A stretch of DNA of 64,000 bases. It comes from a virus (Duplodnaviria; Heunggongvirae; Uroviricota; Caudoviricetes). Below the pieces are notes generated by a model, which was not told the DNA's origin, searched no databases, and saw nothing but the letters and a program-made list of their open reading frames with translations. Location: the IMG/VR virus record IMGVR_UViG_2541047802_000007; one strand, given 5' to 3'. Position numbers and translations under genes: made by a program. Positions 5,730 to 64,000 of the stretch are shown in pieces (position 1 is the first letter of the stretch; each line of letters opens with the position of its first letter).

Positions 5730-5731
5730 AC

Positions 5732-14049: not shown

Positions 14050-14092
14050 CTGACAAAAGCAGGAATGATGCCATTTGCTCGTTATTTCTGCA

Positions 14093-14559: not shown

Positions 14560-14561
14560 TA

Positions 14562-15579: not shown

Positions 15580-16019
15580 TATGCTGCTCTCACGATATAG
15601 TTAAATGCAATGTTGCGTGGACGGGTATCGACGGGGTTAACGGCCACTGTACCCGACACGGACTGGTCATTACCGTTGCTAACGGTAATGTTACTACTGG
15701 TTGATCCAATCCCTACTGAATCGGTAAATTTAGCACCTGAGCCGCTCAAAGTTCCCGAGATGATAGCTAGCTCCACATAAAAAGTACCTACAGTTGGCTC
15801 TTGTGTTGACAGCACCGCACGCCTTGAATCAACGCCGCGCCCATCATCCCAGCCACGAATAAACTCACCACGTAAATCAGGCAATTTATTTGTCGGATAA
15901 GCCTTTGCCAGTTCCGGGTATTCTTCAGCAGAAAAAGCCGCACCGTTGCATTTCAGCCAGCCTGTTGGCGGTGTGGCTGAAGGCCATGGAACAGGCACAC
16001 CAACAGGTAATGCAGAGCC
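15579..16019 (-). CDS. Tail-fibre C-terminal variable segment (Sv' type), no own start
   Basis: GEGSALPVGVPVPWPSATPPTGWLKCNGAAF... shares N-part and last 13 aa with gpH C-terminus. Confidence 0.65.
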   Translation of the reverse strand, partial: GSALPVGVPVPWPSATPPTGWLKCNGAAFSAEEYPELAKAYPTNKLPDLRGEFIRGWDDGRGVDSRRAVLSTQEPTVGTFYVELAIISGTLSGSGAKFTDSVGIGSTSSNITVSNGNDQSVSGTVAVNPVDTRPRNIAFNYIVRAA

Positions 16020-16045
16020 TTCTCCCAAACCAACGTTTATGAAAA
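16020..16045. other. 26-bp invertase crossover site, right
   Basis: ttctcccaaaccaacgtttatgaaaa. Confidence 0.7.
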
Positions 16046-16088
16046 TGCAGAAATAACGAGCAAATGGCATCATTCCTGCTTTTGTCAG

Positions 16089-16211
16089 GGAGATCTACCA
16101 TGCTTATTGGCTATGTACGTGTGTCAACAAATGACCAGAACACAGATCTACAACGTAATGCGCTGAACTGTGCAGGATGCGAGCTGATTTTTGAAGACAA
16201 GATAAGCGGTA
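16089..16211 (+). pseudogene. Pin-like serine invertase, truncated after ~41 codons
   Basis: Same N-terminus as Gin at 56819..57436, then abrupt divergence and stop. Confidence 0.75.
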
Positions 16212-16323
16212 CAAAGTCCGAGACCTAGGGCTGACACTGCTGTTCTTGATGCAAATTAAAGTATTTAATAGTGAGTAGCGGCCTTACTAATGTAAGGCCA
16301 CTATAATCATTTTATTAATTGCA

Positions 16324-18213
16324 TTAATCGTGTTTTGGCCATACTTTCAATGCAATTTCCCCCAACTTTTTACCCCGCTCCAGGATTTCATCCTCATCCC
16401 ATTTATCCTTAACTATAAGTGGAATGTTCAGTCGTAGATTGGTGTGGACGATGAGAGCATCACGTTTTTTCAGAAATACAGCATTCTGAACAGAACGGTT
16501 TACGCTAAGGTTAAGCAAAGTTAGATTTCCCAAAGTAGATATCGCTTGTTGCCGTTTCCTTACCAGTAGCTGTTCAGGGGTAAGATCGGTTCCAGACAGA
16601 ACAATTTGGTTCAATACCGTAGCATCTGAATTTGTCACCATACGACCATTTTCGAGAGGCCAACAGGAATACCAACTTTGAGGCATAAGATGATCGATAT
16701 CGAGATTAGAAAGATTTGGAACATCAGGCTTTTCTGTCTTTACTTGGCGACAAAGTTCTCTTTCAAGTTCCGTTAACATTGAGCGCATTTTCGGTGCGTC
16801 GAGCCTGCCAGGATAAAGTGGAGCATTGATGCAAGCGTTGAGAAATTCTGAGTCACCAGGCCAACGTGAGGCTTCGCCATTTAAGTTATTGAGGATATTA
16901 CGTAACTCAACACTGGAAATTTCCGTTTTAGCCAAGTGCCGCAATACATTCATAAATACATTGTTGTAATTCTTTGGCGTCAGGCCACATACGGCTCTTC
17001 GTACTACGTAGGAGACAAGATCATTATACATGGCTGCTTTCTCATCATCAGCGATGTTAGCTATCGAAATGAACAAAGCAAGCGGATAAAGTGTCGTCAC
17101 ATCATAGTCTGCGATGCGATATCCAAAGTGTGAGATGGGGGTTGTGCCAAAACCATCAACCAATTCTTTATATTGTGATGCATATTGTTTGAGGCGCTTT
17201 ACTTGCAGATCTGCTCGTTGTGAAGACAAGTCCTTACTTACATAATCACGATACTCATTGTAAAGGCGAGACAGATCAATTTCACGTTGCCTTTCTGATT
17301 GCAATGTCGCATGTACTAGCCACTCCATGCGTGGTTTATTAATACGTCCACGGCGTTGTTTTTCCGACCAGTATTTATCTTCAAAGCTCTTCCACTCATT
17401 TTCATATAATTCAATAGCATTAATATTTTCATGCTCAGCGCACATAAAGATATAGTTGCGAATAAGATCCGTAGCATGAAGTTCCGCCCCTCGCCCATTT
17501 AATGTTTCAAAAATTATTTGGGCATCATCTTCAGCTTCGAGAAATATGCTTACCAGTTTCAGATCTGTTAAGACAGCCTCAATTAGAGCTACAGCATTTT
17601 CTTGTGGTGAGTGGTTTTCTATTTTAATCCATTTTATAAAGGCTTCAGTAAAAAAACATAATGCTTCTAGTGATGGCGGGTGATTAAAATGCTTACGCAA
17701 CGTACCATGCTGCGTGAAACTATCAGAGAATACGTCCCGGAGATCGTCAATATTTTCAACATTAAAACTTTGAATAAAATGAGTTTGATCCCGAAAAGTT
17801 GGCCACAGTTTGAAGCGTTCTACTTCTTTATTTCGCATTGTGTCTTCGTTTGAGTTTTTCAGGCAAGGCGAAATGAGAGCCTCTAAGCTGGAAAGATCCG
17901 TAGCACGTAATGCTAATCGGATGGATGCCAGAACATATTGAAGAGTGGTCAATCGTTGCTGACCATCAATAATATGTATGGAATCTACACCTAATAATCC
18001 TTTTTTTGATTGAGGTTCCAGTACAACCGCACCAAGGAAATGGGGAGTTGGTTTTGTACCCGAGAGCCGGGATTGTACTTTCTCTAGGATATCCTCCAGT
18101 AGAGCTGACCACTGGTCTTGCTGAGTCCATACATAGGCACGTTGATAGAATGGAACACAGTATTGTCGGCGGTCTTGAAAAAGTTGTTGGACAGTTAGCG
18201 TCTCGGATTTCAT
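16324..18213 (-). CDS. GmrSD-like type IV restriction endonuclease (DUF262 + DUF1524)
   Basis: Mirror of 11925..13814. Confidence 0.7.
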   Translation of the reverse strand: MKSETLTVQQLFQDRRQYCVPFYQRAYVWTQQDQWSALLEDILEKVQSRLSGTKPTPHFLGAVVLEPQSKKGLLGVDSIHIIDGQQRLTTLQYVLASIRLALRATDLSSLEALISPCLKNSNEDTMRNKEVERFKLWPTFRDQTHFIQSFNVENIDDLRDVFSDSFTQHGTLRKHFNHPPSLEALCFFTEAFIKWIKIENHSPQENAVALIEAVLTDLKLVSIFLEAEDDAQIIFETLNGRGAELHATDLIRNYIFMCAEHENINAIELYENEWKSFEDKYWSEKQRRGRINKPRMEWLVHATLQSERQREIDLSRLYNEYRDYVSKDLSSQRADLQVKRLKQYASQYKELVDGFGTTPISHFGYRIADYDVTTLYPLALFISIANIADDEKAAMYNDLVSYVVRRAVCGLTPKNYNNVFMNVLRHLAKTEISSVELRNILNNLNGEASRWPGDSEFLNACINAPLYPGRLDAPKMRSMLTELERELCRQVKTEKPDVPNLSNLDIDHLMPQSWYSCWPLENGRMVTNSDATVLNQIVLSGTDLTPEQLLVRKRQQAISTLGNLTLLNLSVNRSVQNAVFLKKRDALIVHTNLRLNIPLIVKDKWDEDEILERGKKLGEIALKVWPKHD

Positions 18214-18637
18214 GGTATACCTGTAAGCGACATTGTACAAAAGTGAGGAGTTAATCTGATTTAGAACAATCATTTTATTTTGCTATGATACAACGTATTT
18301 GTTACCGATTAAGTAAAAAACGCGTCTGAACGCTGACGTTTTAGGGCTTTACTGGTTATTCTTTCTTATCTCTTCATCATCCCATCGGCATCCTGTCGAG
18401 GTTGTTGACTTGTTGTTATTTATTTTGTCTAGGCGCTGTTTAATTATTATTGATAGAATTGATGGTGAGAGGTGATTGAAACCGTAGGCACGTCGTTTGC
18501 AAGGACGTGCTACGACTGGCTGGTGAACTTCCGATAGTGCGAGTATTGAATGATTTCCTACGTGCTAACTAGTGAACAAACAACTCTTCAGTAGACTCTC
18601 AGGTATCATTCAGAGTTTCCTGAACGAAAGTTTTAGC

Positions 18638-18816
18638 TCAATCTTTATCTGCAGTATGTCTAACTGAAAAACTATCGTTGCTGGTGGCTTTTACGATCAT
18701 CTCCACATCGTCATAACGCTTGCCAATGTGTTGGGTTAATTCTTCCTTTAACGCGTCCACAGCGCCGTTTGGCATTTGGTCATTTTGTCTTTGGCTATGG
18801 AGATCTCAATACGCAT
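18638..18816 (-). pseudogene. dinI-like gene disrupted by frameshift
   Basis: Mirror of 11322..11500. Confidence 0.4.
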
Positions 18817-18829
18817 AACACTTCTTTTG

Positions 18830-18849
18830 TACTGCGTTTGTAGACAGTA
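18830..18849. promoter_or_regulatory. LexA-box-like sequence
   Basis: Mirror of 11289..11308. Confidence 0.35.
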
Positions 18850-19016
18850 TTATTCTTATCTGTGTAAATAAACAGTATCAAGACTTCGTTTTAGCTGCAT
18901 AAGAAAAAAGAGATGGATACATTCGGAAAGATTTTGATGGTGGTAGGCTAAGTGAATAGCCTAAAGGTGTTTTACCCCAATTATTCCCCGGTATTTCTCC
19001 GCATAAAAAACAATCA

Positions 19017-19045
19017 TAAAAAAACCAGCCATAATAGGCTGGTTC
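19017..19045 (-). terminator. Rho-independent terminator
   Basis: Mirror of 11093..11121. Confidence 0.5.
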
Positions 19046-19057
19046 TTAAGGGATTTT

Positions 19058-19103
19058 TGGTCGGCACGAGAGGATTTGAACCTCCGCCCCCCGACACCCC
19101 ATG
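19058..19103 (-). other. tRNA-Pro 3' fragment (att remnant)
   Basis: Mirror of 11035..11080. Confidence 0.65.
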
Positions 19104-19213
19104 ATGGCGAGCTACGATCTTAAGGGCTGTTATGTGCCAGAAACAGAGATTTTTATATTCCTCACTCTGGAAATCATAATGCTAACTAGTAGGGATTATA
19201 AGTTGTCAATTGA

Positions 19214-20038
<825 letters not shown>

Positions 20039-20248
20039 TTTCGGAATGGAACTGGATTTCATATTGTGGTCAATTTTCGCACATGATGAGAGAGAGCCCG
20101 CGATAGTTGGCTCTTTTGTGCAAAGTCTGACCAATATTTATTCCCCTCACTGGACGTTACACTCAGACTATCCACTGCTGACATGCCAGTGATTTAAAAG
20201 GAATGCTGCTGATTTAAATAGCGAAAACTTCACTAAAGAGGATGTAAA

Positions 20249-20542
20249 ATGACACTACCCAAGTTCAGGAATGACCTACAAGTTGAAGCTAATTACTCTA
20301 TCAATCAAGCCCGTGAAATGGTTGGGAAAACGGTGAAATCTGTCCAGATTGGTTTTCAGAAAACTGGAGTACAGGTTCATCAGACTGAAATGCTAATCAT
20401 CACGTTTACAGATGACACTCAACTTGCCATCTCAACAGGTTCAAACGTTGTAAACATAACGTCGTTAATTGGGCGTGGTGGCAGTTGCGAGCTTAAGCCT
20501 GCGGATTTTCACGTAGATTTTGATTTGACCTGGCAAAGATGA
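20249..20542 (+). CDS. Hypothetical small protein
   Basis: ORF track 97 aa. Confidence 0.35.
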   Translation: MTLPKFRNDLQVEANYSINQAREMVGKTVKSVQIGFQKTGVQVHQTEMLIITFTDDTQLAISTGSNVVNITSLIGRGGSCELKPADFHVDFDLTWQR

Positions 20543-20629
20543 CAAATCCGGCCGTGCCAGCGGCCTTTTTCATGCTCGTCCTGCTGGCACGGCCGCAAAC
20601 CTAATCCTGTAAGGTGACACTTAAGCGTG

Positions 20630-21418
20630 TCAGAACTGCGCAATAACAACCTTCACTTTTCCTTCCGCGTCTTTAGATTCCAGATCGGTTTTCACGCCCA
20701 AAGGATTATTTATGTAGCAATCCGGGTCATATACAAACAAGATCAACGTATCGCAGTCTTGGTGAGCGCGGTAGCGCGCCATATCAATAAGCAACTCTCC
20801 ACCAACTTTACCCGCTCCCAGAGATTCACGGGTTTTCTTCACCTCTATCACAATTTTCTCTTTTTTCAAAAGAAAGTCCTGTCTTGAGGCCGCGCCCGCA
20901 AAGCTGGGGGTATACTCTTCCGCCCTAATATCATTAAAATGAAGCGTCAGCAGTGCATAAATCAAATCCTGTACGTCATACTCATCATTAACTTCAAGCG
21001 GCGCACGGCCGTTGTACCGCCTCTTTAACTGGCGAACAAAGGTCGGAAACCTGTTAAGAATATTAAGTACGAGGCTCAGCGGCGAACCTTCTTGAGGAGT
21101 ATTAGTACTGACAGCAGAGTGCGCAAGATCATCTCTCGCCGCATCAAACAACGGTTTATAACTTTTGATCAGTGTATTGTAATTAGAAGACCACCTGCTG
21201 TTTACAGTATTGAAGTCATTGTAATAATCAGACTCTTTTCCGTAGCTGTCCTCTATTAACTTTTTCACTCTGGCGATCCAGTTTTTATATTTACCAGAAT
21301 CAACATAGGTTTCCATAGTGTGAGTGAGAACGTTCTGCGCAGTATATTTTGTGGAAATGAGCGCATCGTAATCTTTCTCAAGCGCCCTAAATCTTTCTTC
21401 CAGTTGTAGATTTGTCAT
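20630..21418 (-). CDS. Hypothetical protein with PD-(D/E)xK-like motif
   Basis: Mirror of 8720..9508. Confidence 0.45.
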   Translation of the reverse strand: MTNLQLEERFRALEKDYDALISTKYTAQNVLTHTMETYVDSGKYKNWIARVKKLIEDSYGKESDYYNDFNTVNSRWSSNYNTLIKSYKPLFDAARDDLAHSAVSTNTPQEGSPLSLVLNILNRFPTFVRQLKRRYNGRAPLEVNDEYDVQDLIYALLTLHFNDIRAEEYTPSFAGAASRQDFLLKKEKIVIEVKKTRESLGAGKVGGELLIDMARYRAHQDCDTLILFVYDPDCYINNPLGVKTDLESKDAEGKVKVVIAQF

Positions 21419-21612
21419 AGTGCCTTCCAGGCTGTATAGTCGGATAACAAGGTCTGTGCGTATGGAAATTCTACCATACTTAGCCTTCTTTTCTTCACAC
21501 TGGGCGTAACAGCCATTCTGTCCAGCCCCCCTAGCGTGATCTTACCTGCTGCGGCATTCGGTTGTCTTAGCTCCGGAATAATATTCGGAGATGCATAACT
21601 GTCCAGTGCCAT
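21415..21612 (-). CDS. Hypothetical small protein
   Basis: Mirror of 8526..8723. Confidence 0.3.
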   Translation of the reverse strand: MALDSYASPNIIPELRQPNAAAGKITLGGLDRMAVTPSVKKRRLSMVEFPYAQTLLSDYTAWKAL

Positions 21613-21844
21613 ACGCGCCCCAATCCTATATATCTACTTCATAGCTTTTCAGTAAGGAATGAATATATTAATTTCTGTGATGATTAGTATCGGAGGGTAC
21701 GAATGACTATATATCGCTCATAGCAAACGCTCACATCTGTTATGGTTAGAAAGCAGGAAGAGGGGGACAGGCTACGGTATAAGAAAAGTGGGTTGTTGTT
21801 TATGGCCGCATTGAGAGTGTCGAATCAGGCTAAAGAGAAGAAGC

Positions 21845-21870
21845 AAAAAAGCCCGCATCAGCGGGCTTTC
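21845..21870 (-). terminator. Rho-independent terminator beyond att
   Basis: Mirror of 8268..8293. Confidence 0.5.
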
Positions 21871-21997
21871 ATTTCACTTCGGAGCCGCGGCTCCTTTGCG
21901 TATCCTTTTATGTCTCCTCACCGTCTGGTCGGTGTCCTGCTGAGACTTCTAACTTCCTGTTTTTGTTGGTGTTGTCCTTACACCGTCCAATCATGAT

Positions 21998-22042
21998 TGG
22001 TGGAGCTGGCGGGAGTTGAACCCGCGTCCGAAATTCCTACAT
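21998..22042 (-). other. ssrA: ssrA 3'-end fragment = prophage att core
   Basis: Revcomp matches tmRNA 3' end ending CCA; 3' end points away from prophage. Confidence 0.8.
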
Positions 22043-22158
22043 ACCATTATAACATGTTGCAAAACAACTATTTATGTTAATTTTCAATCACTTAAGTTTA
22101 CGATGTATTACCTTGTTTTATGTGTTTTTAACTCTTTGCCGCCATTATGCCGCCACTC

Positions 22159-41711: not shown

Positions 41712-43412
41712 TTATTCAAGGTGATTTGAAAGAGTAATTAATGGCTCAATCGGTTGGAACGCTTTTAAGGATGTTAATATGTTTTTAACTTCCTTTGATA
41801 CGATAGATAACGGGTTGTCTGTTACAGATAAGTAGGTGGTTAAATCTTGACCTGAAACACGGATAACATGTGGTAATATCGCAGTTATAACTGGTGTCCA
41901 AAGGTCGATTAAATCATCCAGAGAGTTATTTTTAGATAATGCTGTATCATATTTATATTTTATTTTCTTCTTGTTCAAAGGTTTATCTGTTAATTCTTCA
42001 AGTATTTCTCCGATGACGGATATTAAAAAGAATCGAGACTTTAAATTTTGGAGGAATAATAAGTTATCCTCATCTACTTTAATTTTATTCTCTTTTGCAC
42101 GGATTTGAGATTTTACTTTTTCTATAGCTTTTGAAATAGTGTAAGCACATAAAATATGCTGGGCTTTCGAATCATGAAAGGCATTGTCATAGGCTGATTT
42201 TGTATCGAAAACGTAGTTTTTACCTCTATTGGCGCTAACATAATCCCCATGTAACGCTATCAGCGGTTGAGCAACAGACTCAATGCCAAATAAAGAACCA
42301 GTATTTTCGAAGCCGCGTTTCAGTGAATATGTATAACCAAGAGTGGAAAATTCTTCTGCCACCTGTTTTTGTTCTGTGCTGTTAGAGTAGTGATCCCAGG
42401 TTGTAATATGATTCTGAGTATTATTATACTGGACTATTTTTTTTACTTTGTCCGCATCATTACATTCAATAACCTTACAAAGGACTTTTAGGCCATCTAA
42501 TTTTTGTATATCTTGAACTGAACCAATAGAACCAGTGGTTTGAGCTCCATTTATGATTGAAACTCCTTCCAACAACCCTTTTTCTTTGTTGAATTTTGTT
42601 GTTAGGATTGATACACCATTGTTAAAGACAAAGAAGTCTTTTGGGGATGTTTCTGCGGTATTCTTAATTGATGAGTTTATTTTTCTTCTCTTATTTAATC
42701 CCATGAACCCCCTATAATTAGCAGAAAATAATTCTGCTCCATAATTTTTGTATAAATAATTTAGCCAAGTGCCGTTTGCAAAGCCAACATGTGAAGTCCA
42801 GCCATCACCTTGTACAGAATTTATAAGTTCGCCATTGAACTTTATATTGTCAGTCACAACAATTTGTTGTGATAGCGCAATATACAATTTTTCAAGACTA
42901 TTAACACCAAGTTCTCTGTAAGTTACCTCAATTTCTTTGTCTGCAAATCTACCTGCTAGATAGTCACGACAAGTTTCAAGCTCAGTTTTAACCTGCTCAG
43001 ATTCGGCACAATTATGGATATATAATAATTCAACAGCTTCAATTTCGTTATCATCAATTAATTTTCTAACCTCAGAAATTTTTGCTCTTAATTTTGCATT
43101 TGGAGACTCTCCTGAGCCTGCCATAATCCACGCTAAAGCAGTGTTTAAGTCAGAAGCTTTATTTGCAGGCGCAACTATTTTAAGTGCTTGCTGATTGCAG
43201 TAGTAACCCTGAGCAATAAATAACGTTGAATTAATTACGGTAATGAAGTCTATTTTCTTATCGTTTCCACCATCAGTAAGTCCATCAGATGCTAGCTTAT
43301 CAAAATCGGATTCATCTAAGTAAAGACCTAATGACCATAAAAGATGTGCGTTACTAGTCCCGTACTTTTCTAACAGGGAAGTTTTATTTTGCAGTTGTCT
43401 TAAGTGTTCCAT
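41712..43412 (-). CDS. AT-rich cargo protein, 566 aa, possibly Abi/AIPR-like
   Basis: Opposite-strand ORF in low-GC island between S and V; contains NGAQT; family not verified. Confidence 0.55.
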   Translation of the reverse strand: MEHLRQLQNKTSLLEKYGTSNAHLLWSLGLYLDESDFDKLASDGLTDGGNDKKIDFITVINSTLFIAQGYYCNQQALKIVAPANKASDLNTALAWIMAGSGESPNAKLRAKISEVRKLIDDNEIEAVELLYIHNCAESEQVKTELETCRDYLAGRFADKEIEVTYRELGVNSLEKLYIALSQQIVVTDNIKFNGELINSVQGDGWTSHVGFANGTWLNYLYKNYGAELFSANYRGFMGLNKRRKINSSIKNTAETSPKDFFVFNNGVSILTTKFNKEKGLLEGVSIINGAQTTGSIGSVQDIQKLDGLKVLCKVIECNDADKVKKIVQYNNTQNHITTWDHYSNSTEQKQVAEEFSTLGYTYSLKRGFENTGSLFGIESVAQPLIALHGDYVSANRGKNYVFDTKSAYDNAFHDSKAQHILCAYTISKAIEKVKSQIRAKENKIKVDEDNLLFLQNLKSRFFLISVIGEILEELTDKPLNKKKIKYKYDTALSKNNSLDDLIDLWTPVITAILPHVIRVSGQDLTTYLSVTDNPLSIVSKEVKNILTSLKAFQPIEPLITLSNHLE

Positions 43413-45978: not shown

Positions 45979-47600
45979 GCACAAAATTTTATACCCTGCT
46001 GACGGATATTGGCGCGGCGAAACTTGCCAGCGCCGCCGCGCTCGGTGTGCCTTTAAAAATTACCCATATGGCGGTCGGCGATGGCGGCGGAACATTGCCA
46101 ACGCCGGACGCCAAGCAGACAGCATTGGTAAATGAGAAACGCCGGGCTGCGCTGAATATGCTCTATATCGACCCGCAGAACAGCAGCCAGATTATTGCTG
46201 AACAGGTGATCCCTGAAAACGAGGGCGGTTGGTGGATACGTGAAGTGGGCCTGTTTGATGAGTCCGGGGCATTGATTGCCGTGGGAAACTGCCCGGAAAG
46301 CTATAAGCCGCAACTGGCTGAAGGCAGCGGACGTACCCAGACCGTGCGCATGGTGCTGATAACCAGCAGCACGGACAATATCACCCTGAAAATCGACCCT
46401 GCCGTCGTGCTGGCAACCCGCAAGTATGTGGATGATAAGGTACTGGAGCTGAAGGTGTACGTGGATGACCTGATGGCAAAACATCTTGCCGCACCGGACC
46501 CGCATTCACAGTATGCACCCAAAGAAAGTCCGACGTTTACCGGGACACCCAAAGCGCCAACGCCAGCAGCAGGGAATAACACCACGCAGATTGCGACCAC
46601 CGCGTTTGTTCAGGCGGCTCTGACGGCTCTTATTAATGGTGCGCCAGCCACCCTGGACACGCTGAAAGAAATAGCCGCAGCCATTAACAATGATCCGAAA
46701 TTCAGTACCACCATTAACAATGCACTGGCACAAAAAGCGCCGCTGTCGAGTCCGGCACTCACCGGAACGCCAACAGCTCCCACGGCGGCGCAGTCGGTCA
46801 ACAATACACAGATTGCCACTACCGCTTTTGTGAAATCGGCAATTGCAGCAATGGTGGGTTCTGCACCTGCGGCACTGGATACGCTGAACGAACTGGCAGC
46901 GGCGCTGGGGAATGATCCGAACTTTGCCACGACAATAACTAACTCCCTTGCGGGGAAGCAGCCAAAGGATGCTACTTTAACGGCGTTGGCAGGGCTTTCT
47001 ACATCAAAAGATAAACTCCCTTATTTTACAGGGGAAGATCGAGCTGCCTTAACTGCACTGACAAGTGTTGGGCGTACCATTCTTAGCAGGCCCAGCGCAC
47101 AGGGCGTTCTTGATTATCTTGGTTTAGGGGATGGCTCTGCATTACCTGTTGGTGTCCCTGTTCCGTGGCCTTCTGCCACTCCACCGACAGGCTGGCTGAA
47201 ATGCAACGGAGCGGCTTTTTCGGCTGAAGAATATCCCAAACTGGCAAAGGTTTATCCGACAAATAAATTGCCTGATTTACGTGGTGAGTTTATTCGTGGC
47301 TGGGATGATGGGCGTGGTATTGATGCTGGGCGTGCTTTATTGAGCCTTCAGGCTGGAATGCTGGAAAAACACCGCCATATGGTTGTAGCCAACGATGGGT
47401 ATGATTCAAAAGAGGAATGGGAACTGGCGGCAATCTTCAGAAAAGCATATACGCAAGGCCGGGGGCTTGATGCTGCCGATGCCGGAGGGACTCTGATTCC
47501 ATCACCAACGCTACATACACGAGGGAGTATTGGTAACACAGGTGGGAGCGAAACCCGTCCACGAAATATTGCATTTAACTATATCGTGAGAGCTGCGTAA
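45975..47600 (+). CDS. H: Tail fibre protein H
   Basis: 541 aa; repeated ATTAFV...AAL motifs. Confidence 0.85.
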   Translation: MSTKFYTLLTDIGAAKLASAAALGVPLKITHMAVGDGGGTLPTPDAKQTALVNEKRRAALNMLYIDPQNSSQIIAEQVIPENEGGWWIREVGLFDESGALIAVGNCPESYKPQLAEGSGRTQTVRMVLITSSTDNITLKIDPAVVLATRKYVDDKVLELKVYVDDLMAKHLAAPDPHSQYAPKESPTFTGTPKAPTPAAGNNTTQIATTAFVQAALTALINGAPATLDTLKEIAAAINNDPKFSTTINNALAQKAPLSSPALTGTPTAPTAAQSVNNTQIATTAFVKSAIAAMVGSAPAALDTLNELAAALGNDPNFATTITNSLAGKQPKDATLTALAGLSTSKDKLPYFTGEDRAALTALTSVGRTILSRPSAQGVLDYLGLGDGSALPVGVPVPWPSATPPTGWLKCNGAAFSAEEYPKLAKVYPTNKLPDLRGEFIRGWDDGRGIDAGRALLSLQAGMLEKHRHMVVANDGYDSKEEWELAAIFRKAYTQGRGLDAADAGGTLIPSPTLHTRGSIGNTGGSETRPRNIAFNYIVRAA

Positions 47601-48202
47601 TGGATAAAGCCGTATTAAATAGCGAACTTATTGCCACGAAGGCGGGGAATATTACCGTCTATAACTATGATGGTGAAACACGGGAATATATTTCTGAATC
47701 AACTGAATATCTTGCTGTTGGCGTCGGTATTCCCGCACATTCGTGTTTAGATGCTCCTGGTTCATATAAGTCAGGTTATGTGTCCTGTCGAACTCTGGAT
47801 TTGAGATCATGGGAATATGTGCCAGACCATCGCGGTGAAATCGTCTATAACACCGAAACGGGGGACTCAAAAGAAATCACAGTGCCGGGAGATTACCCTG
47901 AAAAGACAACCACTATTGCTCCGTTAACACCATACGATAAGTGGGATGGTGAGAAATGGGTGACGGATACCAAAGCGCAACATAACGCAGCAGTGGAAGG
48001 GGCTGAACTGCAACGCCAGTCACTGATTGATGATGCCATGTCTTCCATTGTTCTGATTCAACTAAAATTGCAGGCGGGAAGAAAATTAACTGCGGAAGAA
48101 ACAGTAAAGCTCGATTCCGTTCTTGACTATATCGACGTGGTAGCAGCAATAGATATCAGCACAGCCCCTGATATTAACTGGCCCAAACTACCAGAAATTT
48201 AA
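47600..48202 (+). CDS. G: Tail fibre assembly protein G
   Basis: 200 aa; TAATG overlap with H. Confidence 0.8.
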   Translation: MDKAVLNSELIATKAGNITVYNYDGETREYISESTEYLAVGVGIPAHSCLDAPGSYKSGYVSCRTLDLRSWEYVPDHRGEIVYNTETGDSKEITVPGDYPEKTTTIAPLTPYDKWDGEKWVTDTKAQHNAAVEGAELQRQSLIDDAMSSIVLIQLKLQAGRKLTAEETVKLDSVLDYIDVVAAIDISTAPDINWPKLPEI

Positions 48203-55242: not shown

Positions 55243-55329
55243 ATGATGAATTGTCCAAAGTGTGGTCATGCGGCACACACAAGGAGCAGTTTTCAAGTAA
55301 CTGAAAGCACCAAAGAGCGTTACTGCCAG
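55243..55329 (+). pseudogene. ogr: Ogr/B-type zinc-finger late activator, truncated after codon 29 by Mu-like insertion
   Basis: MMNCPKCGHAAHTRSSFQVTESTKERYCQ then stop supplied by first bases of inserted element. Confidence 0.7.
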
Positions 55330-55410
55330 TGAAGCGGCGCACGAAAAGCGCGAAAGCGTTTCAAATAAAATACGAAAACTCAAAACTTTCGCGCTTCAAT
55401 TGAGACAGTT
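55330..55410. promoter_or_regulatory. Mu-type right end with transposase-binding repeats
   Basis: tgaagcggcgcacgaaaagcgcgaaagcgtttcaaataaaatacgaaaac closely resembles the Mu R-end as recalled. Confidence 0.75.
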
Positions 55411-55422
55411 GTTTTATGTATG

Positions 55423-55869
55423 TCAGTTTCGTTTACATTTATATGTCTTAAAAATATTCACATCATCTCGGATATAAAGATTTTTTCCTGATTTATCAAC
55501 GATAAAATACTTTATAACCGCAGGATTTCTAGTCAAAGCATAGAGATAATCAGTCCCTTTAATCTTTTCATCCTTGTCTTGTTCGTCAATTTGGCCTGTT
55601 TCTATCTGAGTGTATAGTTCACCTGTATCAAGGTCTGTCCATGACCCCATATCAACGCCCATATGCATACGAATACCGTGGCAGGTCCAAAAACCAGAGG
55701 CAGGGGCTTTATTTGCAACACTCTTATCTGGATCTATCCCGGCGGACCTTAAGACTGCATCAGCAGCCACTTCAGGATCAAAATCTTTTTCTTGAGCGTG
55801 ATTGACTGAGGAGGCGGTTAGTACGAATAGGCTGATGATGGTACTGATTAGCAATTTTGATTTTTTCAT
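55423..55869 (-). CDS. Secreted hypothetical protein (signal peptide), AT-rich
   Basis: MKKSKLLISTIISLFVLTASSVNHA signal-like N-terminus; between mom and element end. Confidence 0.5.
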   Translation of the reverse strand: MKKSKLLISTIISLFVLTASSVNHAQEKDFDPEVAADAVLRSAGIDPDKSVANKAPASGFWTCHGIRMHMGVDMGSWTDLDTGELYTQIETGQIDEQDKDEKIKGTDYLYALTRNPAVIKYFIVDKSGKNLYIRDDVNIFKTYKCKRN

Positions 55870-55913
55870 CTAATATGCTCCGTATGTGAGTAAATACATA
55901 AATTTATATGATA

Positions 55914-56651
55914 CTAATCAGAACTGCTTTTTGGGTATGGCTGAATCCTGAATAGTTTGGTATTTAGCCGCTTTCTTGCTCGCTTGTTCAGGAACCTGAT
56001 GTAGCGATACTGATTAAATTTGTGCACCACGGCACGCTCTTTATTAGCCCGTAAATACATGCCTCGTTGTCCACCGCGCTTAATTGCGTTCATCGTTATC
56101 TCGTGATACCACTCACCATCCAGCTCGTAGAACGTGCTTTCATGGCTGCCAATAAAATCAAAATTTGACGCCTGATACACAACGCCAGCACGTCCGCAGC
56201 GTTCGTCTGCAAAAGACTGAACCCACTCCACTGACGGATACAGTAACCTTATGGTTTTCAGTGCATAACTGATGGCCCGTGATTCAGAGTTGCGGGGCAT
56301 GTCGTCGTGTAGCCACATGCGGTTCAACTCCATATAGCCCCGGTTATCCGTTTCAAGCACGACACGACGACCAGAGTTGGGGTTAAGGGCATATCCCCAC
56401 TGGAGAACGCCAACCAGATCGCGTCCGCTGAATACTCCCAAGTGGAGGTAAGAGTTATTCACAAAACGGCGGGAATAGTGCTTTGTCTGAATAATTGTGC
56501 GGGCCAGCCAGCAGGATATGGTTTCAACGCGCAGCTCCTTTGAACCATAGCCAACAATCTGGCTTTCATACTCAATAACGCACGGTTTCGTCAGAATGCG
56601 TGATTTCTTCTCTTTTCCCACAATGTTTCTCCGTGGGATGCTCGCAGGCAT
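55914..56651 (-). CDS. mom: Mom-like DNA modification protein (start uncertain)
   Basis: 245 aa ORF overlapping com 3' end, downstream of gin-com. Confidence 0.55.
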
Positions 56652-56760
56652 TCAGCATTATGATATGACGTTTGCAACGCGGACACCTGATTTCAATGTG
56701 ATCAAAGGAATCCGCCTTAAATAACAGTTTGTTGCAGTTTTTACAGCGAATTGATTTCAT
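56572..56760 (-). CDS. com: Com zinc-finger translational activator of mom
   Basis: 62 aa [14 protein letters not shown]...RCPRCKRH four-Cys finger. Confidence 0.7.
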
Positions 56761-56818
56761 CTCACCTCCTTTGCATCAATTCGCCACTATCTTAAAAAAC
56801 ATCGTGGGTTGAGTGTGG

Positions 56819-57436
56819 TTATTGGGGCATAATCGATCTGTATTGCCGATCGATTTGATTGATTCGATCGTCGTTTTCTATATGCGTTCGTTTCGCGGGG
56901 TGTTTTTTATACAGAGTTGACAGAGCCACATCATAGATCAATGCAACCTGCTTGCGGGGGATTCCTTGTACTAATAAACGCCCGGCCTGCTCCCATTCCG
57001 CTTTGGTTAGTTTAGGTGGTCGCCCACCAATACGGCCTTTATTTCTGGCGGCAGCAAGTCCAGCCATCGTTCGCTCGATGATTAGTTCTCGTTCCATTTC
57101 AGCCAGGGCACCCATAACGTGGAAGAAAAAACGCCCCATTGGAGAAGATGTGTCTATGCTGTCGGTAAGACTGCGAAAATTAATCCCTCGCTCCCGTAGT
57201 TCCCCGACGAGGGAAATCAGATGTTTCATGCTTCGCCCGAGGCGATCCAGTTTCCAGACAACCAGTGTGTCACCTTTTTGAAGGCGCTTTAACGCGCGTT
57301 TTAATCCAGGTCTGTCTGTCCTTGTTCCGCTTAATTTATCTTCAAATATTTGTTCACATCCTGCACAAACAAGAGCGTTTCGTTGCAGGTCTGTATTCTG
57401 GTCATTTGTTGATACCCTTACATAGCCAATCAGCAC
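56819..57436 (-). CDS. gin: Gin/Pin-family serine DNA invertase, intact
   Basis: 205 aa; catalytic Ser in YVRVSTNDQ; C-terminal HTH. Confidence 0.85.
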   Translation of the reverse strand: MLIGYVRVSTNDQNTDLQRNALVCAGCEQIFEDKLSGTRTDRPGLKRALKRLQKGDTLVVWKLDRLGRSMKHLISLVGELRERGINFRSLTDSIDTSSPMGRFFFHVMGALAEMERELIIERTMAGLAAARNKGRIGGRPPKLTKAEWEQAGRLLVQGIPRKQVALIYDVALSTLYKKHPAKRTHIENDDRINQIDRQYRSIMPQ

Positions 57437-57490
57437 TCTGGATCTCCCGTTTAAAAGCGCAAATCACGCCATGCAGGCCGGAAACAACCA

Positions 57491-57516
57491 TTATCTAAAA
57501 CCTCGGTTTACAGGAA
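57491..57516. other. gix crossover site (invertase-proximal)
   Basis: ttatctaaaacctcggtttacaggaa, inverted repeat of 60486..60511. Confidence 0.75.
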
Positions 57517-58377
57517 ACGGTAAACAGGGCTGGTAACGCCGTGCAAAAAAATGGCGATACCTTGTCCGGTGGGCTTACTTTTGAAAATGACTCAATCCTT
57601 GCCTGGATTCGAAATACTGACTGGGCGAAGATTGGATTTAAAAATGATGCCGATGGTGACACTGATTCATACATGTGGTTTGAAACAGGCGACAACGGCA
57701 ATGAATATTTCAAATGGAGAAGCCGCCAGAGCACCACAACAAAAGACCTGATGACGCTGAAATGGGATGCACTAAATATTCTGGTAAATGCCGTCATTAA
57801 TGGCAGTCTTGGAGTTGGTACGACGAATGCGTTAGGTGGTAGCTCTATTGTTCTTGGTGATAATGACACCGGATTTAAACAGAATGGAGACGGCATTCTG
57901 GATGTTTATGCTAATAGTCAGCGTGTATTCCGCTTTCAGAATGGAGTGGCTATTGCTTTTAAAAATATTCAGGCTGGGGATGGTAAAAAATTCACGCTAT
58001 CCAGCTCCAACAACTCCACGAAGAACGTAGGGTTTAATTTATGGGGCGCTTCGTCAAGGCCAACTGTTGCAGAGCTTGGCGATGATTCTGGCTGGCATTT
58101 CTATAGTCAGCGAAATACAGATAACTCAGTAATATTTGCTGTTAACGGTCAGATACAACCCAGCAACTGGGGGAATTTTGATTCCCGCTATGTGAAAGAT
58201 GTTCGCCTAGGTACGCGTGTTGTTCAATTGATGGCGCGTGGTGGTCGTTATGAAAAAGCCGGACACGCAATTACCGGATTAAGAATCATTGGTGAAGTAG
58301 ATGGCGATGATGAAGCCATCTTCAGACCAATACAAAAATACATCAATGGCACATGGTATAACGTCGCACAGGTGTAA
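57517..58377 (+). CDS. Alternative tail-fibre variable segment S'v (silent in this orientation)
   Basis: Frame opens at crossover site and would fuse to Sc after inversion. Confidence 0.65.
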   Translation, partial: TVNRAGNAVQKNGDTLSGGLTFENDSILAWIRNTDWAKIGFKNDADGDTDSYMWFETGDNGNEYFKWRSRQSTTTKDLMTLKWDALNILVNAVINGSLGVGTTNALGGSSIVLGDNDTGFKQNGDGILDVYANSQRVFRFQNGVAIAFKNIQAGDGKKFTLSSSNNSTKNVGFNLWGASSRPTVAELGDDSGWHFYSQRNTDNSVIFAVNGQIQPSNWGNFDSRYVKDVRLGTRVVQLMARGGRYEKAGHAITGLRIIGEVDGDDEAIFRPIQKYINGTWYNVAQV

Positions 58378-58380
58378 ATT

Positions 58381-58914
58381 ATGCAGCATTTAAAAAATAT
58401 TAAGTCAGGAAATCCAAAAACAAAAGAGCAATATCAGCTAACAAAGAATTTTGATGTTATCTGGTTATATACAGAAGACGGTAAAAACTGGTATGAGGAA
58501 GTAAATAACTTTCAGGAAGACACCATAAAGATTGTTTACGACGAAAATAATATTATTGTTGCCATAACCAAAGATGCCTCCACACTTAACCCTGAAGGTT
58601 ATAGCGTCGTTGAGATTCCTGATATTACCGCCAACCGGCGTGCTGACGACTCAGGTAAATGGATGTTTAAAGATGGCGCAGTCATTAAACGTGTATATAC
58701 CGAAGAAGAGTTGCGCCTACAGACGGAAAACCAGAAAAAAATATTATTACAGCAGGCCAGAGAAAAAACGCAGTTCTGGCAAACACAGCTTGCGCTGGGA
58801 ATTATCAGCGATTCAGACAGGCAAAGACTCATTAACTGGATGTTATACATGCAGCAGGTTGATGCCACAGATACCTCTGTTCTTCCTGTAACATTCCCGG
58901 AACAACCAGAATGA
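58381..58914 (+). CDS. Tail fibre assembly protein U'
   Basis: 177 aa. Confidence 0.7.
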
Positions 58915-58942
58915 GACAAGGCCCGCTATCGGGCCTTAATTT

Positions 58943-59470
58943 TTATTCAGGCTTTTGTGGCCATTCAGGCTTTGCCGTATCTACACGGCTGACCAGAACG
59001 CTGTAGCGTTCCCATGATTCCAGCCGTGTGCGTTCCTTGTCTGTTGCCATATTCAGCCTTACAGCACGTTCCAGCGGTTGAATCACAGACTCCGCTTCAG
59101 AAAGCAAAGCGGCTTTTTGTAACTCAGCCTGCTGCTGCAGTTCCTGTTCTGTATATTCCCGTTTTACCACTTTACCATTCAGAAACATCCAGTTTCCGTA
59201 ATTATCTGCGCGACGATTTGCCGTAATATCGGATACTTCAACAACACTTAAACCTTCCGGGTTAATAGTTGAAACATCTTTGCTTACGGTAACAATCACA
59301 TTATTTTTATCGTATGCAATTTTTATAGTATCTGGTTGAAAGTTTTTTTGTTCTTCGTACCAGTTTTTACCATCTTCAGTATAAAGCCAGACAACTCCAG
59401 CTTTTTTGGTTAACTGGTATTGTTCTGGTGTTTTTGGGTTTCCTGCTTTAATGTTTTTTAAATGCATCAT
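58943..59470 (-). CDS. U: Tail fibre assembly protein U
   Basis: 175 aa. Confidence 0.7.
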
Positions 59471-59471
59471 G

Positions 59472-61007
59472 TCAAATACTCACAACGTTATAATATGTCC
59501 CACCAATCAACTTCTGAATAGGTCTTCTGGTTAATGTATCAATAAACTCATCGGTGTTGCTGTTTCCGGCTGCGGTCAGAACATATCCAGAAGTATCCCA
59601 ATAACCAGGGCCTCGCCATGCTGATATTGATTCTGCGCTACCAAGTCGAATGTCTCTTACATATGTGCTATTGAGATAATCAGCTAAATTTGAACCCCAA
59701 CACCCGCCAAATATATTTCCATCGGTGTTATAACGGATGCCACCCGCAACAAGAGCACCCGGTGAAATAAAAGATTTATCGTTCGGGTTAAACTGCCATA
59801 AAGCATCATTACCGCCATCGCCACGCATATGAATACATGGAACCGGAAATCCATACTGTTCTGTCAGCAAATAACCAAAGCTGACCGCGCCGGGATAGCC
59901 CTGTCCATTGCGAATGGACAAGCCCTTAACTATCGGCACGTAATGACCACCAGGAGTGGGATTCCAGGCAAACTGCGTCTGAACAAAAGGCGCGGTGGCA
60001 TTATTCAACTGGTCTGCAAATGCGCCACTTCCATCAGGAATTATTCCCTGATGAATATATGCAACCCGCTTATAAAAATCAGCAGATGCGGGTTGAAGCC
60101 CGAATGCCAGTTGTCCATTTGAATAGAATAAAAGGACACCGTCGCCGCCCTGTTTAATACCAGTGTCGTTATCTCCGAGAGTAATGGAATTACCGCCCAG
60201 TGCGTTATCTGTACCAAGCGCCAGCCCACCATCAATTTTGGCCCCGTGGCTGACCGATATAGCTCCTGTTCTCAGATTTATAGCGAATGGCCTTAATGGG
60301 CCGATATCACCGTTTTCGCCTTGTCCTTCAGCCGTAGGGATGAAATGAAGGTACTCTTCTGAACGACGGAAAATAAGACCGAAGGCATCATTAAAAATTC
60401 GCAGCGCATTCATCGTGCCAATTTTCAGTTCTCCGGTCATTTTATCGCCGGAACGCTGAACGGCGTTACCAGCCTTGTTTACCGTTTCCTGTAAACCGAG
60501 GTTTTGGATAAACAGCGGCTTATTGGGAATATCTGCTCCGTTCCGGTCTTTTGCCAGACGGGCATTGGCATTATCCATCGCAATTTTCACCGCTTTTGCA
60601 GTGGCTGCCAGCGTTTCACTGGGGCTGTCAGTGGCACTGGTTAGCTGAACGAGTCCTTTTTTGTTCAGGCTGGCATCATAGATATCCAGATTTTCACGTG
60701 CTGTACGCTGTGCTGATGCCCCGGCAGTTTTAATTTCGCTGAGGTTATTTTTTATCAGCAGCGCGTTATTGCTCATAATGGCTTTAATGGACAGTGCAAG
60801 CTGGTTTAATTTTGTTTTATCCGGTTGAATACCGGCTTCTTCCAGCGTGTTTAATAACTCCGCCTGCACAATATTAAACCAGTCCATGCCGGGCCATGTG
60901 ATAACATTATTCCCGTCACCTTCTGAAAACCAGCGAACGATAGCACTACGCTGGGCGGATACGGGCGGCATGACGGTTACGCCGCTGTCGTTATCAATAT
61001 AAAACAT
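59472..61007 (-). CDS. S: Tail fibre protein S (constant Sc + variable Sv, current orientation)
   Basis: 511 aa; gix site lies in frame (FIQNLGLQE) inside the gene. Confidence 0.8.
60486..60511. other. gix crossover site (inside S)
   Basis: ttcctgtaaaccgaggttttggataa. Confidence 0.75.
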
Positions 61008-61549
61008 TAGTTATCTCCGTCATGGTAAACAAATTTATAAATCTGATGTGCGGGTTTATATTTCTCCAGTAAACATTCCAGCGCACCCGATTCATAAACA
61101 CGTAACGGCGTCAGAACATTATCCAGCACCGTTGCGTTGCGATAATTTTTAATACCGTAAATATTGACCTGCGTAACCCACTGGCCTTCTGTGGAATCCG
61201 TCAGCCTAACGGTAAAACCGTACTGTGCAGCCAGCCATTCATAAAAGCGCCGACTCAGATTGCCGGTCATACGCATTTTATTCGCGGCAGCCCGCTGGCG
61301 TTCGGACAAGGTGCCGTTTTCGCTGGTACAGTCCGGCAACCCCAGAAATGATTCCCACTCCCCCAGATACCAGCGGGATGTGGACGGGAAACGCTCCCGC
61401 AGCATTTGCCGCGCATCATCCGCCGCAGTGGCAATCACGTCGCTGATGGCCTGCGCCAGCGCAGATAATTTGCTGTCGGGGCTTTTATTCCAGGCAAGCC
61501 CTGACGGCAGTAATTGCAGAAAGGCCGTCTGATAGGGTGTTACAGCCAT
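61007..61549 (-). CDS. Tail protein (Mu gp48-like)
   Basis: 180 aa, position between baseplate J-like gene and S. Confidence 0.55.
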   Translation of the reverse strand: MAVTPYQTAFLQLLPSGLAWNKSPDSKLSALAQAISDVIATAADDARQMLRERFPSTSRWYLGEWESFLGLPDCTSENGTLSERQRAAANKMRMTGNLSRRFYEWLAAQYGFTVRLTDSTEGQWVTQVNIYGIKNYRNATVLDNVLTPLRVYESGALECLLEKYKPAHQIYKFVYHDGDN

Positions 61550-62622
61550 TCAATTGTCCCCGGTGTTAACAGTTCCGTATTCTCCGAACGCTGGATCTCT
61601 GTCGGGAAACGCACTTCAAAATCATCCAGACCGGTAACACCTGCCACCGCACGGATAATACGGGAGGGGGCAAGTGCGCCGCCCGGCGTCACCTCATTAA
61701 AAAACATGGTATTAATGGCGTGGGTAATAGCCTGTTTCAGTTCGGCTGTCTTCGGTGATATATAAATCCGTGGATTTACCGGCTTTGCCTTTGGCGCAAA
61801 TACAGTGACATTTACACCGTCAGGCTGTCCGACAATCAGACCGGTGATCGGGTCAGTATGACCGGCGATATAATCCGCCACGCGTTCCACGTCTGCCGGT
61901 TGTGGAAAAATATTGCTCCGGTTATCCATAACAAACGTCACCCCGACTGTGCCACCGCCTTTCCATGTCGGAAAACACCAGGCACGGGTAACGCCGCTGA
62001 CTTCACGTGCCCAGCGAACGTAATCAAACTGATTACCGCCGAACGGAGGGTACTGGACACGATATTCCAGCCGTGACAGCAGTTCCGCTGCACTCTCAAT
62101 ATCAGCTCCACCGGAAAACCCTTTTACAGTGATGGCATCGGAAACAACACAGGCAACCGGGGTGATCAACGTTAAAAGGGTATTCTCACCGGTATTTCCT
62201 GCTTCACCGGCAGCCAGTGCGGTAACGGTAATTTCCGTCGTTCCTGCACGGTCAATCACAATGGCATCAGCCAGGCTGTAAACCACACCATCAGCACGCT
62301 GCCAGCGTGTACCGGCAGGAATGGTGGTCGCTGCCGATGTGGTGACAGTCAGCGGGCCGCTGGCGGCTGTCGCCTGTTTGCGGCGCACGCCCCAGAACCG
62401 GCAGTGCTCCAGCAACTCATCTTCATCTGCTGTCGACGGGATAATCTGCCGTCCAACCCATGAAATATGCTCGTGACAACCGGCAGCAAGCCCTGCCTGG
62501 GCGTAAGCAATGGCACTCAGCGTTTTTTCACGGGCCTGAGGCCAGCTACCCGGCAGGCGCTGTTCAATATTCTGTTCTGTACGGGCAATCAGCGATGATA
62601 ATGTCGGTGGTGAATAAGCCAT
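61540..62622 (-). CDS. Baseplate J-like protein (Mu gp47-like)
   Basis: 360 aa. Confidence 0.65.
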   Translation of the reverse strand: MAYSPPTLSSLIARTEQNIEQRLPGSWPQAREKTLSAIAYAQAGLAAGCHEHISWVGRQIIPSTADEDELLEHCRFWGVRRKQATAASGPLTVTTSAATTIPAGTRWQRADGVVYSLADAIVIDRAGTTEITVTALAAGEAGNTGENTLLTLITPVACVVSDAITVKGFSGGADIESAAELLSRLEYRVQYPPFGGNQFDYVRWAREVSGVTRAWCFPTWKGGGTVGVTFVMDNRSNIFPQPADVERVADYIAGHTDPITGLIVGQPDGVNVTVFAPKAKPVNPRIYISPKTAELKQAITHAINTMFFNEVTPGGALAPSRIIRAVAGVTGLDDFEVRFPTEIQRSENTELLTPGTIEWL

Positions 62623-63060
62623 TTAAACCCCGTTAAATGCTGCTTTAAACTCATAAGGAATAACGGAACCATCCGGTAATGTCAGTGCAATGTAGAGGTA
62701 TAACCAGCCCTGATGTAACTGTTCCGCTCTGACGTTAACCGCACTTACCCGGCCTGCTGTTTTCAGCCATTCCAGCGCCTCTTCGGCATACCCTCTGGCA
62801 CGTTCCAGCGTATCCTGTGTGGCTTTTTCACGTGATAACAGCCACAACCGCGAACCAATGGGGCGGTCGCGGTAACTGTCACCCCACCATCCACGGCGAT
62901 CATCTGAACCATCCGGCAGCGTGTCAGAATCCAGCGCGCGCCGGTCGGTAAACAGGGAGATTGTCACATCGGTTGTCAGGCTGTCGTCGGTCAGCATATC
63001 AATGCCATCCTGTGCAATATCGCCGCGTCCGTTCGTCCAGATAATGGCTAAATCGGTCAT
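62623..63060 (-). CDS. Baseplate protein (Mu gp46-like)
   Basis: 145 aa. Confidence 0.55.
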   Translation of the reverse strand: MTDLAIIWTNGRGDIAQDGIDMLTDDSLTTDVTISLFTDRRALDSDTLPDGSDDRRGWWGDSYRDRPIGSRLWLLSREKATQDTLERARGYAEEALEWLKTAGRVSAVNVRAEQLHQGWLYLYIALTLPDGSVIPYEFKAAFNGV

Positions 63061-63650
63061 TGCATTGGCCCCGTGGTTCCGCCGCTGTCGCCACGGTGGA
63101 TATGCTTATCCGTCGATTTGCCATTGATGATGGCATCCGGGGCAGTAATATTGCTGTCGAACTGGCTTTTACCTTTAACGCCCAGACCTTTCTGGATCTC
63201 AACGTCGCCGGTAAACGTGGTTCTGGGTGTATCAACGGTCATACTTTCATCGGCGTAAATCTCAACCGTTTTACAGGTAATGATGCAGCGCCCGTCCTTT
63301 GTCAGCCTGATACGATGTCCCTCGTGGTGGTAAATGCCTGCATCACCCGGTTCAAGATTTGTCGGGCGGTAGCGGCGGTCTTCCACCACAACGGCAATCC
63401 CCTGATCACGTTGTGCACCCACACAGGCAATCAGCGCCTCTGCGCCCGGCAGAGGAACGCTGAAATGCCCGTAATTTTGCAGGCGCTCCACTTCATCAGA
63501 TTCCTCATCATCCAGCAGACCGACCTGCAGGTTCTGAACCTTTCGCCCGTCGTTAATCACGTTAACAACGGCACGCGCAAGCATCAGACGCACACGACGC
63601 ATCAGCGGTGCCAGCAGGCGGTTCATGGCGGAATCATTTACTCTTTCCAC
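63057..63650 (-). CDS. Baseplate assembly/spike protein V-like (Mu gp45-like)
   Basis: 197 aa. Confidence 0.6.
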   Translation of the reverse strand: MERVNDSAMNRLLAPLMRRVRLMLARAVVNVINDGRKVQNLQVGLLDDEESDEVERLQNYGHFSVPLPGAEALIACVGAQRDQGIAVVVEDRRYRPTNLEPGDAGIYHHEGHRIRLTKDGRCIITCKTVEIYADESMTVDTPRTTFTGDVEIQKGLGVKGKSQFDSNITAPDAIINGKSTDKHIHRGDSGGTTGPMQ

Positions 63651-64000
63651 GGCGGCGTTTTCTCCGGGTGTCTGCGATAATAATCTTCAACCAGCGCATC
63701 AATACCGCCGTTACTGTCGCCGCCTTTCCTGTTTTTACGGTCGCTTTCAACCGGCACCAGAAAGCCTTCGCGTGGTGCAAGGCTGACGCGGGTTTTCAGC
63801 CCGTCCTGGTCATTCAGTATCAGGGTGACTTTGCTGACCAGTAATTCTGTGGTTTTGATGGCATATATCGAGGCATCAATAGTGACCAGCAGGTTCGGCA
63901 TCCAGAGTTGCCCGTCCTTGCGTGTCCATCCGTCAATTTCTGCCTCAAAGGTGATGGATTTTGCCAGTCTGCGGCGTTGCTCACGCAGGGCGCGGGCCTG
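63638..64000 (-). CDS. Tail/baseplate protein (Mu gp44-like), partial: 5' end beyond window
   Basis: Frame stays open upstream of track M at 63901 to window edge. Confidence 0.45.
   Translation of the reverse strand, partial: QARALREQRRRLAKSITFEAEIDGWTRKDGQLWMPNLLVTIDASIYAIKTTELLVSKVTLILNDQDGLKTRVSLAPREGFLVPVESDRKNRKGGDSNGGIDALVEDYYRRHPEKTPPWKE

Follow-up and report, generated by a model that had tools for sequence, protein, structure and literature searches.

The stretch of DNA analysed here, 64,000 nucleotides (nt) of the IMG/VR virus record IMGVR_UViG_2541047802_000007 and referred to below as the window, contains two tail-fibre switch regions located 41 kb apart: the Gin/G switch of a Mu-like prophage (56819-61007) and a central cassette (14093-16045), in which recombination sites are accompanied by the remnant of an invertase gene. 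The window can largely be placed on the chromosome of Escherichia coli S88 (NC_011742.1). By BLAST against the fetched loci, window positions 1-16038 correspond to S88 2824241-2840278 on the plus strand and window positions 16019-55331 to the minus strand of S88 from 2838359 to 2799047, and the sole real single-nucleotide polymorphism in the matched stretches is at position 51205. Because these stretches match S88, the host chromosome can be assigned to an S88-like E. coli of sequence type 95 (ST95). Here, we describe both switches and then consider whether Gin, as a first-pass annotation had suggested, may drive inversion of the central cassette as well as of its own segment.

The right-hand 8.7 kb of the Mu-like prophage (55332-64000, minus strand), comprising mom, com, gin, the G segment and baseplate genes, match Yersinia phage vB_YpM_3, D108 and Mu at 94-97%. 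The gin gene (56819-57436, minus strand) has a GTG start, in common with Mu, and its open reading frame (ORF) encodes a full-length Gin-family serine DNA invertase of 205 amino acids (aa) with the Pfam domains Resolvase (E 7.7e-50) and HTH_7. In an alignment with the Mu Gin sequences of PDB 3UJ3/4M6F that spans residues 1-193, 191/193 positions are identical, two carry natural substitutions, and Ser9 is present; the 12 extra C-terminal residues result from a TAA-to-CAA change. The exact 205-aa protein is found in 494 blocks of public assemblies. It is the sole full-length invertase within the window (tblastn) and is 78% identical to PinE, which belongs to the P segment of e14 in K-12. The gin-proximal gix site (TTATCTAAAACC TC GGTTTACAGGAA; 57491-57516) differs from the Mu site TTATCCAAAACCTCGGTTTACAGGAA at one position, and the second site (TTCCTGTAAACC GA GGTTTTGGATAA; 60486-60511) is an exact Mu gix that lies in frame within the tail-fibre gene S, at about codons 166-174. 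The two sites are inverted relative to each other and have matching TC/GA centres. The gix pattern had no match in 100 shuffles, and a looser Din-type pattern, with 0.02 matches expected by chance, detected within the window only the two gix sites and the sequences at 14093-14118 and 16020-16045 in the central cassette.

Between and around these sites, the gene arrangement is that of an invertible tail-fibre locus. S (59472-61007, minus strand; Pfam Phage_fiber_2) is composed of a constant part (60512-61007) and a variable part (59472-60485) and is followed by the tail-fibre assembly gene U in the expressed orientation (58943-59470, minus strand; Pfam Caudo_TAP). In the silent orientation are a second assembly gene, U' (58381-58914, plus strand; Pfam Caudo_TAP), which forms an inverted pair of 73% identity with U, and an alternative tail-fibre C-terminus, S'v (57541-58377, plus strand; Pfam Gp34_trimer). 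When the segment is inverted in silico between the gix centres, S stays open and changes from 511 to 460 aa, with 177 N-terminal residues in common and S'v as the new C-terminus. Both states occur naturally: identical Gin is found in public contigs beside either G orientation, with S of 511 aa and U of 175 aa or with S of 460 aa and U of 177 aa, the 460-aa form being present in contigs L005, L006 and L012-L014. The first-pass annotation had described a full-length invertase and both gix sites, one of them in frame inside S, and in all of these points it is borne out.

Gin is a Fis-dependent serine invertase, which Mu expresses from the prophage. In the proposed mechanism, Gin would synapse the two inverted gix sites together with an enhancer within the 5' coding region of gin, and would then invert the ~3.0-kb G segment, by which the C-terminus of tail fibre S is replaced (511 versus 460 aa) and U is swapped for U'. 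The predicted recombinational enhancer (57352-57415, minus strand; gin coding nt 22-85) has two Fis-type G-N13-C 15-mers, putative Fis sites that are found at coding nt 22-36 and 71-85 in gin, in pinE and in the pin stub of the central cassette alike. The first 15-mer lies ~96 bp from the site centre, and coding nt 1-66 of gin, which include it, are identical to Mu over the stretch compared. For Hin, the enhancer measures 65 bp, carries a Fis site at either end and is separated from the nearer crossover site by ~100 bp (PMC3798978); the predicted gin enhancer agrees with it in both position and size. Judged from its sequence, the region is apparently a functional, canonical Mu G switch, and as such already known biology.

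The central cassette can be identified as an e14-type P segment, carried by an ssrA-linked prophage that is typical of E. coli ST95. On the stub side, the cassette has a pix site (TTTTCATAAACG TT GGTTTGGGAGAA; 14093-14118) with the same sequence as the site next to pin in K-12 e14, and at 16020-16045 a second copy of this site stands in place of the native tail-side site TTCTCCCAAACC AA GGTTTTCGAGAG. The first-pass annotation was thus right to report similar 26-bp sites here. In S88 and APEC O1, the native pix sites are inverted, and both are identical to the pix sites of K-12 e14. The 1.9-kb invertible P-type segment (14119-16019) is 100% identical to S88 and UTI89. Its two alternative tail-fibre C-termini (14065-14559, plus strand, and 15579-16073, minus strand; Pfam Gp53-like_C and Collar) are each accompanied by a tfa gene (14562-15005, plus strand, and 14977-15579, minus strand; both Pfam Caudo_TAP). 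A short leader ORF (MMPFARYFCIFINVG...; 14065-14118 and 16020-16073) begins between the stub and the site and enters the segment, yielding 163-164-aa products in both orientations; these are analogous to StfE/StfE2 of e14, one of which prevents T2 adsorption in K-12 (PMC12529663). In inverted orientation, the tfaE-like gene and the Collar-domain fibre tip of the cassette also share 80-90% identity with genes G and H of the P2-like prophage described below (14984-15630 versus 47549-48195, and 15817-16033 versus 47119-47335), and fibre tips could perhaps be exchanged between these stretches by homologous recombination.

The pin gene of the cassette is reduced to a stub of 41-42 codons (13916-14038, minus strand; predicted Fis enhancer at 13954-14017), so that a functional invertase gene is not among its components. 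In S88, UTI89 and APEC O1, the stub is annotated as a 123-nt 'recombinase family protein, missing C-terminus', and in these three strains the cassette prophage adjoins ssrA and has kept its baseplate, tail and head genes. In the native layout, the segment has on one side a 744-nt tail-fibre gene, the constant part of which continues into it, and on the opposite side the 123-nt stub, followed by a gene for a GmrSD type IV restriction protein of 629-649 aa. The stub hardly differs from pinE between the site and codon 41, a stretch that includes both predicted Fis 15-mers; since it ends at nt 123-126, the whole predicted enhancer (nt 22-85) is retained. Truncation of pin is the derived state, because in relatives of the prophage (L028 and L035) pin is complete, at 184 aa. 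The GmrSD gene (11865-13814; mirror copy 16324-18273) occupies the place of the 3' part of pin. At the corresponding position of e14, the type IV enzyme McrA follows pinE, and relatives L027, L028, L033 and L035 have other cargo at this spot (a LEM-3 GIY-YIG protein, a 1484-aa protein and a 279-aa protein), so that the pin-distal end of the cassette prophage looks like a defence/cargo hotspot.

Native genomes have one stub on one side of the segment and the tail-fibre constant region on the other. The window, in contrast, shows a mirror copy of the stub (16100-16222, plus strand; enhancer at 16121-16184), which was detected by tblastn and is part of a perfect palindrome. This inverted repeat of 14,119 nt has exactly complementary arms (left arm 1-14119, right arm 16019-30137), and its left arm reaches window position 1, the arm length being at least 14,119 nt. 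Both arms equal S88 2824241-2838359, and the left arm occupies the place of the native tail genes. The left half (flank, site and segment) is the junction of S88-type genomes, orientation A, and the right half, read as its reverse complement, is the junction of APEC O1-type genomes, orientation B. The orientation switches within 16019-16033, i.e. the inner half-site plus central dinucleotide, and agreement with S88 ends where the outer half-site begins beyond that dinucleotide, the first departing base being at 16034. The first-pass annotation had stated that the cassette has only invertase stubs. Remnants of 41-42 codons are indeed what is left of pin, but the palindrome shows the single native stub a second time, so that the two 'stubs' count as one, and the window lacks the tail-fibre constant region.

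Both orientations of the cassette are represented among 5426 complete E. coli genomes surveyed, none of which has the palindrome (0/5426). The stub-side junction of orientation A was found in up to 159 genomes at a coverage of at least 80%, and orientation B (in APEC O1, IHE3034, PMV-1 and others) in 23, with at least 99.9% identity and full coverage; the latter matches include the same pin truncation junction. In the case of APEC O1, the cassette has undergone a clean in-frame inversion, both tail-fibre isoforms being 247 aa long. The flanks of 13 strains, compared over 10.5 kb, contain three parsimony-informative variants, each of which pairs one A with one B strain (L024 with L029, L020 with L026 and L021 with L034), one of the three being a 1-nt indel that could be a sequencing error. 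Since all three pair opposite orientations, the cassette has flipped several times since pin was lost, and a cassette that flips after losing pin is flipped in trans. A different rearrangement was seen in strain 2022E04-002 (L004; NZ_CM132301.1, 13521-14200), in which the cassette's tail side has been linked to a site of another invertase cassette: the hybrid site (TTCTCCCAAACC AA CGTTTTCGTCTT), centred on AA, connects it to P2/186-like tail genes and a full-length invertase of 199 aa. This junction resembles an invertase-mediated rearrangement between the cassettes of two prophages.

Within the window itself, the palindrome is most likely an assembly mis-join caused by the presence of both orientations in the sequenced culture: the contig would have joined reads of both orientations via the 1.9-kb segment that they have in common. 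The structure would imply that both orientations were present, or that inter-molecular exchange took place, and hence that an invertase was active on the cassette in that culture. Other origins of the palindrome were considered and rejected. A random fold-back (missed-adapter) read does not explain why the symmetry is interrupted exactly by the invertible segment and why the arms start at the crossover sites; collapse of a flanking inverted repeat in the assembly graph would need more than the native exact repeat, which at 15 nt is too short; and replicative transposition of Mu leaves inversions or deletions with Mu copies at their ends, and would not create a palindrome of host DNA at pix sites.

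An invertase of the Gin family that is supplied in trans needs only the sites and the enhancer in cis. Both pix sites and, at its native distance, the predicted enhancer are kept in the orphan cassette; therefore, any such invertase should be able to flip it, and without an invertase of its own the cassette would be wholly dependent on a supply of this kind. Gin itself is reported in literature of the 1980s to act on pix sites. The gix sites have TC/GA centres and the pix sites TT/AA centres, and exchange of gix by pix should therefore be blocked, leaving the two switches independent of each other. We regard it as moderately probable that the window combines a Mu G switch with an e14-type orphan cassette that is a competent substrate, has been flipped repeatedly and was probably present here in both orientations, and that Gin is a plausible contributor to this flipping but not required for it.

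Several points weigh against a part for Gin and against this account more generally. No evidence links the flipping of the cassette to the Gin encoded in the window, our view of the genome is limited to 64 kb, and not one of the 23 complete ST95 genomes in orientation B has a full-length Mu-type gin (0/23). In addition, the enhancer role of the stub rests on predicted Fis sites, and the heterogeneity of the culture was deduced from the structure of the contig. The absence of full-length Mu-type gin from the flipped genomes means that Mu Gin is not required for flipping of the cassette, and flipping in its absence in turn implies some other invertase in the lineage.

The most serious alternative, which we consider possible though unlikely, is accordingly that the orphan cassette is flipped by another resident invertase, for example one of the PinQ/PinR type or of another Pin type, encoded in a prophage outside the window, with Mu Gin playing no meaningful part. 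The 23 of 23 flipped genomes without full-length Mu-type gin, a gene present in 44 of the complete genomes, and the recurrence of flips among near-identical flanks both speak for it. Partial megablast matches to gin in 1075/5426 genomes point the same way, since they indicate that members of the invertase family are common, and in K-12 it is PinQ/PinR, more than PinE, that act on the e14 P segment (PMC12529663). Against it, no further invertase is visible in the 64 kb, Gin is with 78% identity far closer to PinE than is PinQ (38%; PMC12529663), and what Gin requires in cis is present on the cassette.

Action of one prophage's invertase on the switch of another is not without precedent, and the claim of the first-pass annotation that related invertases cross-complement is supported by published work: the e14 P segment is inverted by PinQ and PinR from other prophages (Qin and Rac), and the same study cites PinE acting on Mu G (PMC12529663). 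PinQ does so on the same pix-flanked e14 segment in spite of its distance from PinE, and Fin of Fels-2 acts on the Salmonella H segment (PMC12529663). Action of Gin in trans on the cassette is therefore precedented and plausible, if unproven. The suggestion that Gin may drive both segments survives in part: the cis elements of the cassette are intact and it flips after truncation of pin, but nothing ties these flips to Gin, which the 23 flipped complete genomes lack in its full-length Mu-type form.

It is also conceivable, but improbable in our view, that the cassette is frozen in this strain and that the palindrome is an artefact unrelated to inversion, arising through a mistake, manual or during scaffolding, or through a library that mixed DNA of two ST95 strains with the cassette in opposite orientations. 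Both orientations do occur, with identical sequence, in different ST95 strains, and a mixed sample of these would give the same join; this would, however, require contamination by a near-identical strain, and a random fold-back read should produce a palindrome that lacks a spacer and lies anywhere, whereas the one observed has the 1.9-kb segment, with crossover sites at its ends, at its centre. Least credible is that the 14-kb palindrome is a real chromosomal structure, an inverted duplication around the cassette formed by invertase exchange between the stub-side site of one sister chromosome and the tail-side site of the other, or by a tandem-inversion duplication using the sites. In its favour, each arm starts precisely at a crossover site, the right-hand site has the hybrid sequence that exchange at the central dinucleotide would produce, and strain 2022E04-002 shows that a site of this cassette can be joined to that of a cassette in another prophage. 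Against it, wild-type Gin-family invertases strongly favour inverted sites on the same molecule, sister exchange would give a head-to-head dimer chromosome unable to segregate, no complete genome has the structure, the arms are 100% identical with the left one running to position 1 like a contig-end overhang, and an assembler joining two orientations would yield the same sequence. If it were true, and due to a Gin-family invertase acting in trans, borrowed invertases could remodel chromosomes at orphan sites.

The Mu-like prophage has inserted into a second, P2-like prophage, which spans ~33-55.2 kb of the window. The R end of the former (TGAAGCGGCGCACGAAAAGCG) starts at 55332 and abuts a truncated ogr (55244-55331), which is broken after 29 codons by the insertion; in S88, ogr is intact at the same position. 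As ogr is the late-activator gene, the insertion should cripple activation of the P2 late genes. The ogr::Mu junction is absent from the complete E. coli genomes and, by exact scans, from GTDB representative genomes and JGI metagenome contigs. Between mom and the Mu-like right end lies a 148-aa ORF (55423-55869, minus strand) with a signal-peptide/lipoprotein-like N-terminus, which has counterparts in D108-type relatives; the alignment with Mu begins only beyond it. Within the P2-like prophage, a low-GC island between the S and V genes, a typical P2 defence-cargo locus, carries an AIPR-family (abortive-infection-type) gene (41712-43412, minus strand). A lone gix-like sequence (TCTATCGGAACC AG CGTTTGCAGGAA; 30477-30502) within a P2 replication gene is also found in S88 and is probably due to chance.

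The Gin/G switch itself is textbook biology, and the orphan cassette is a further example of a known phenomenon. What the cassette contributes is a case, very common in ST95 (a lineage of uropathogenic, avian pathogenic and neonatal-meningitis E. coli), in which the invertase has been lost, the sites and the predicted enhancer have been kept and flipping has recurred. Since the cassette has no invertase and still flips, its state would depend on invertases supplied by the other prophages of the strain. It thereby adds to a recent description of how the e14 P segment is controlled across prophages, which affects phage adsorption in K-12 (PMC12529663). The structure of the assembly is probably artefactual but instructive: palindromic contigs centred on an invertible segment may serve as an assembly-level indicator of inversion heterogeneity, and should not be taken for real duplications or for 'two stubs'.

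Compared with known systems, the Gin/G switch of the window is closest to Gin-gix of Mu and D108. It has the same gene order (mom-com-gin-gix-S'v-U'-U-Sv-gix-Sc), and the two agree in 191 of 193 Gin residues, in gix sites that are exact or have a single mismatch, in the sequence of the predicted enhancer region as far as compared (gin coding nt 1-66, with the first 15-mer) and in the GTG start. It differs in the 12-aa C-terminal extension of Gin through the stop-codon change, in the extra 148-aa ORF between mom and the R end, and in the variable fibre parts (70-76% coverage of Mu and D108), Yersinia phage vB_YpM_3 being the closest. The central cassette resembles the e14 P segment with PinE in its identical pix sites on both sides, its stf-tfa / tfa-stf architecture and its stub, which is near-identical to the 5' end of pinE and includes the predicted enhancer region. 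In contrast to e14, in which pinE is followed by mcrA, pin is cut to 41-42 codons that abut GmrSD, the cassette type resides in an ssrA prophage with full tail and baseplate genes, and the variable parts differ. As in cross-prophage inversion by PinQ/PinR and Fin, the invertase of one prophage could flip the tail-fibre-type cassette of another, with several invertases sharing one target; unlike the target in K-12, which keeps its own PinE, the target in the window is left without any invertase of its own.

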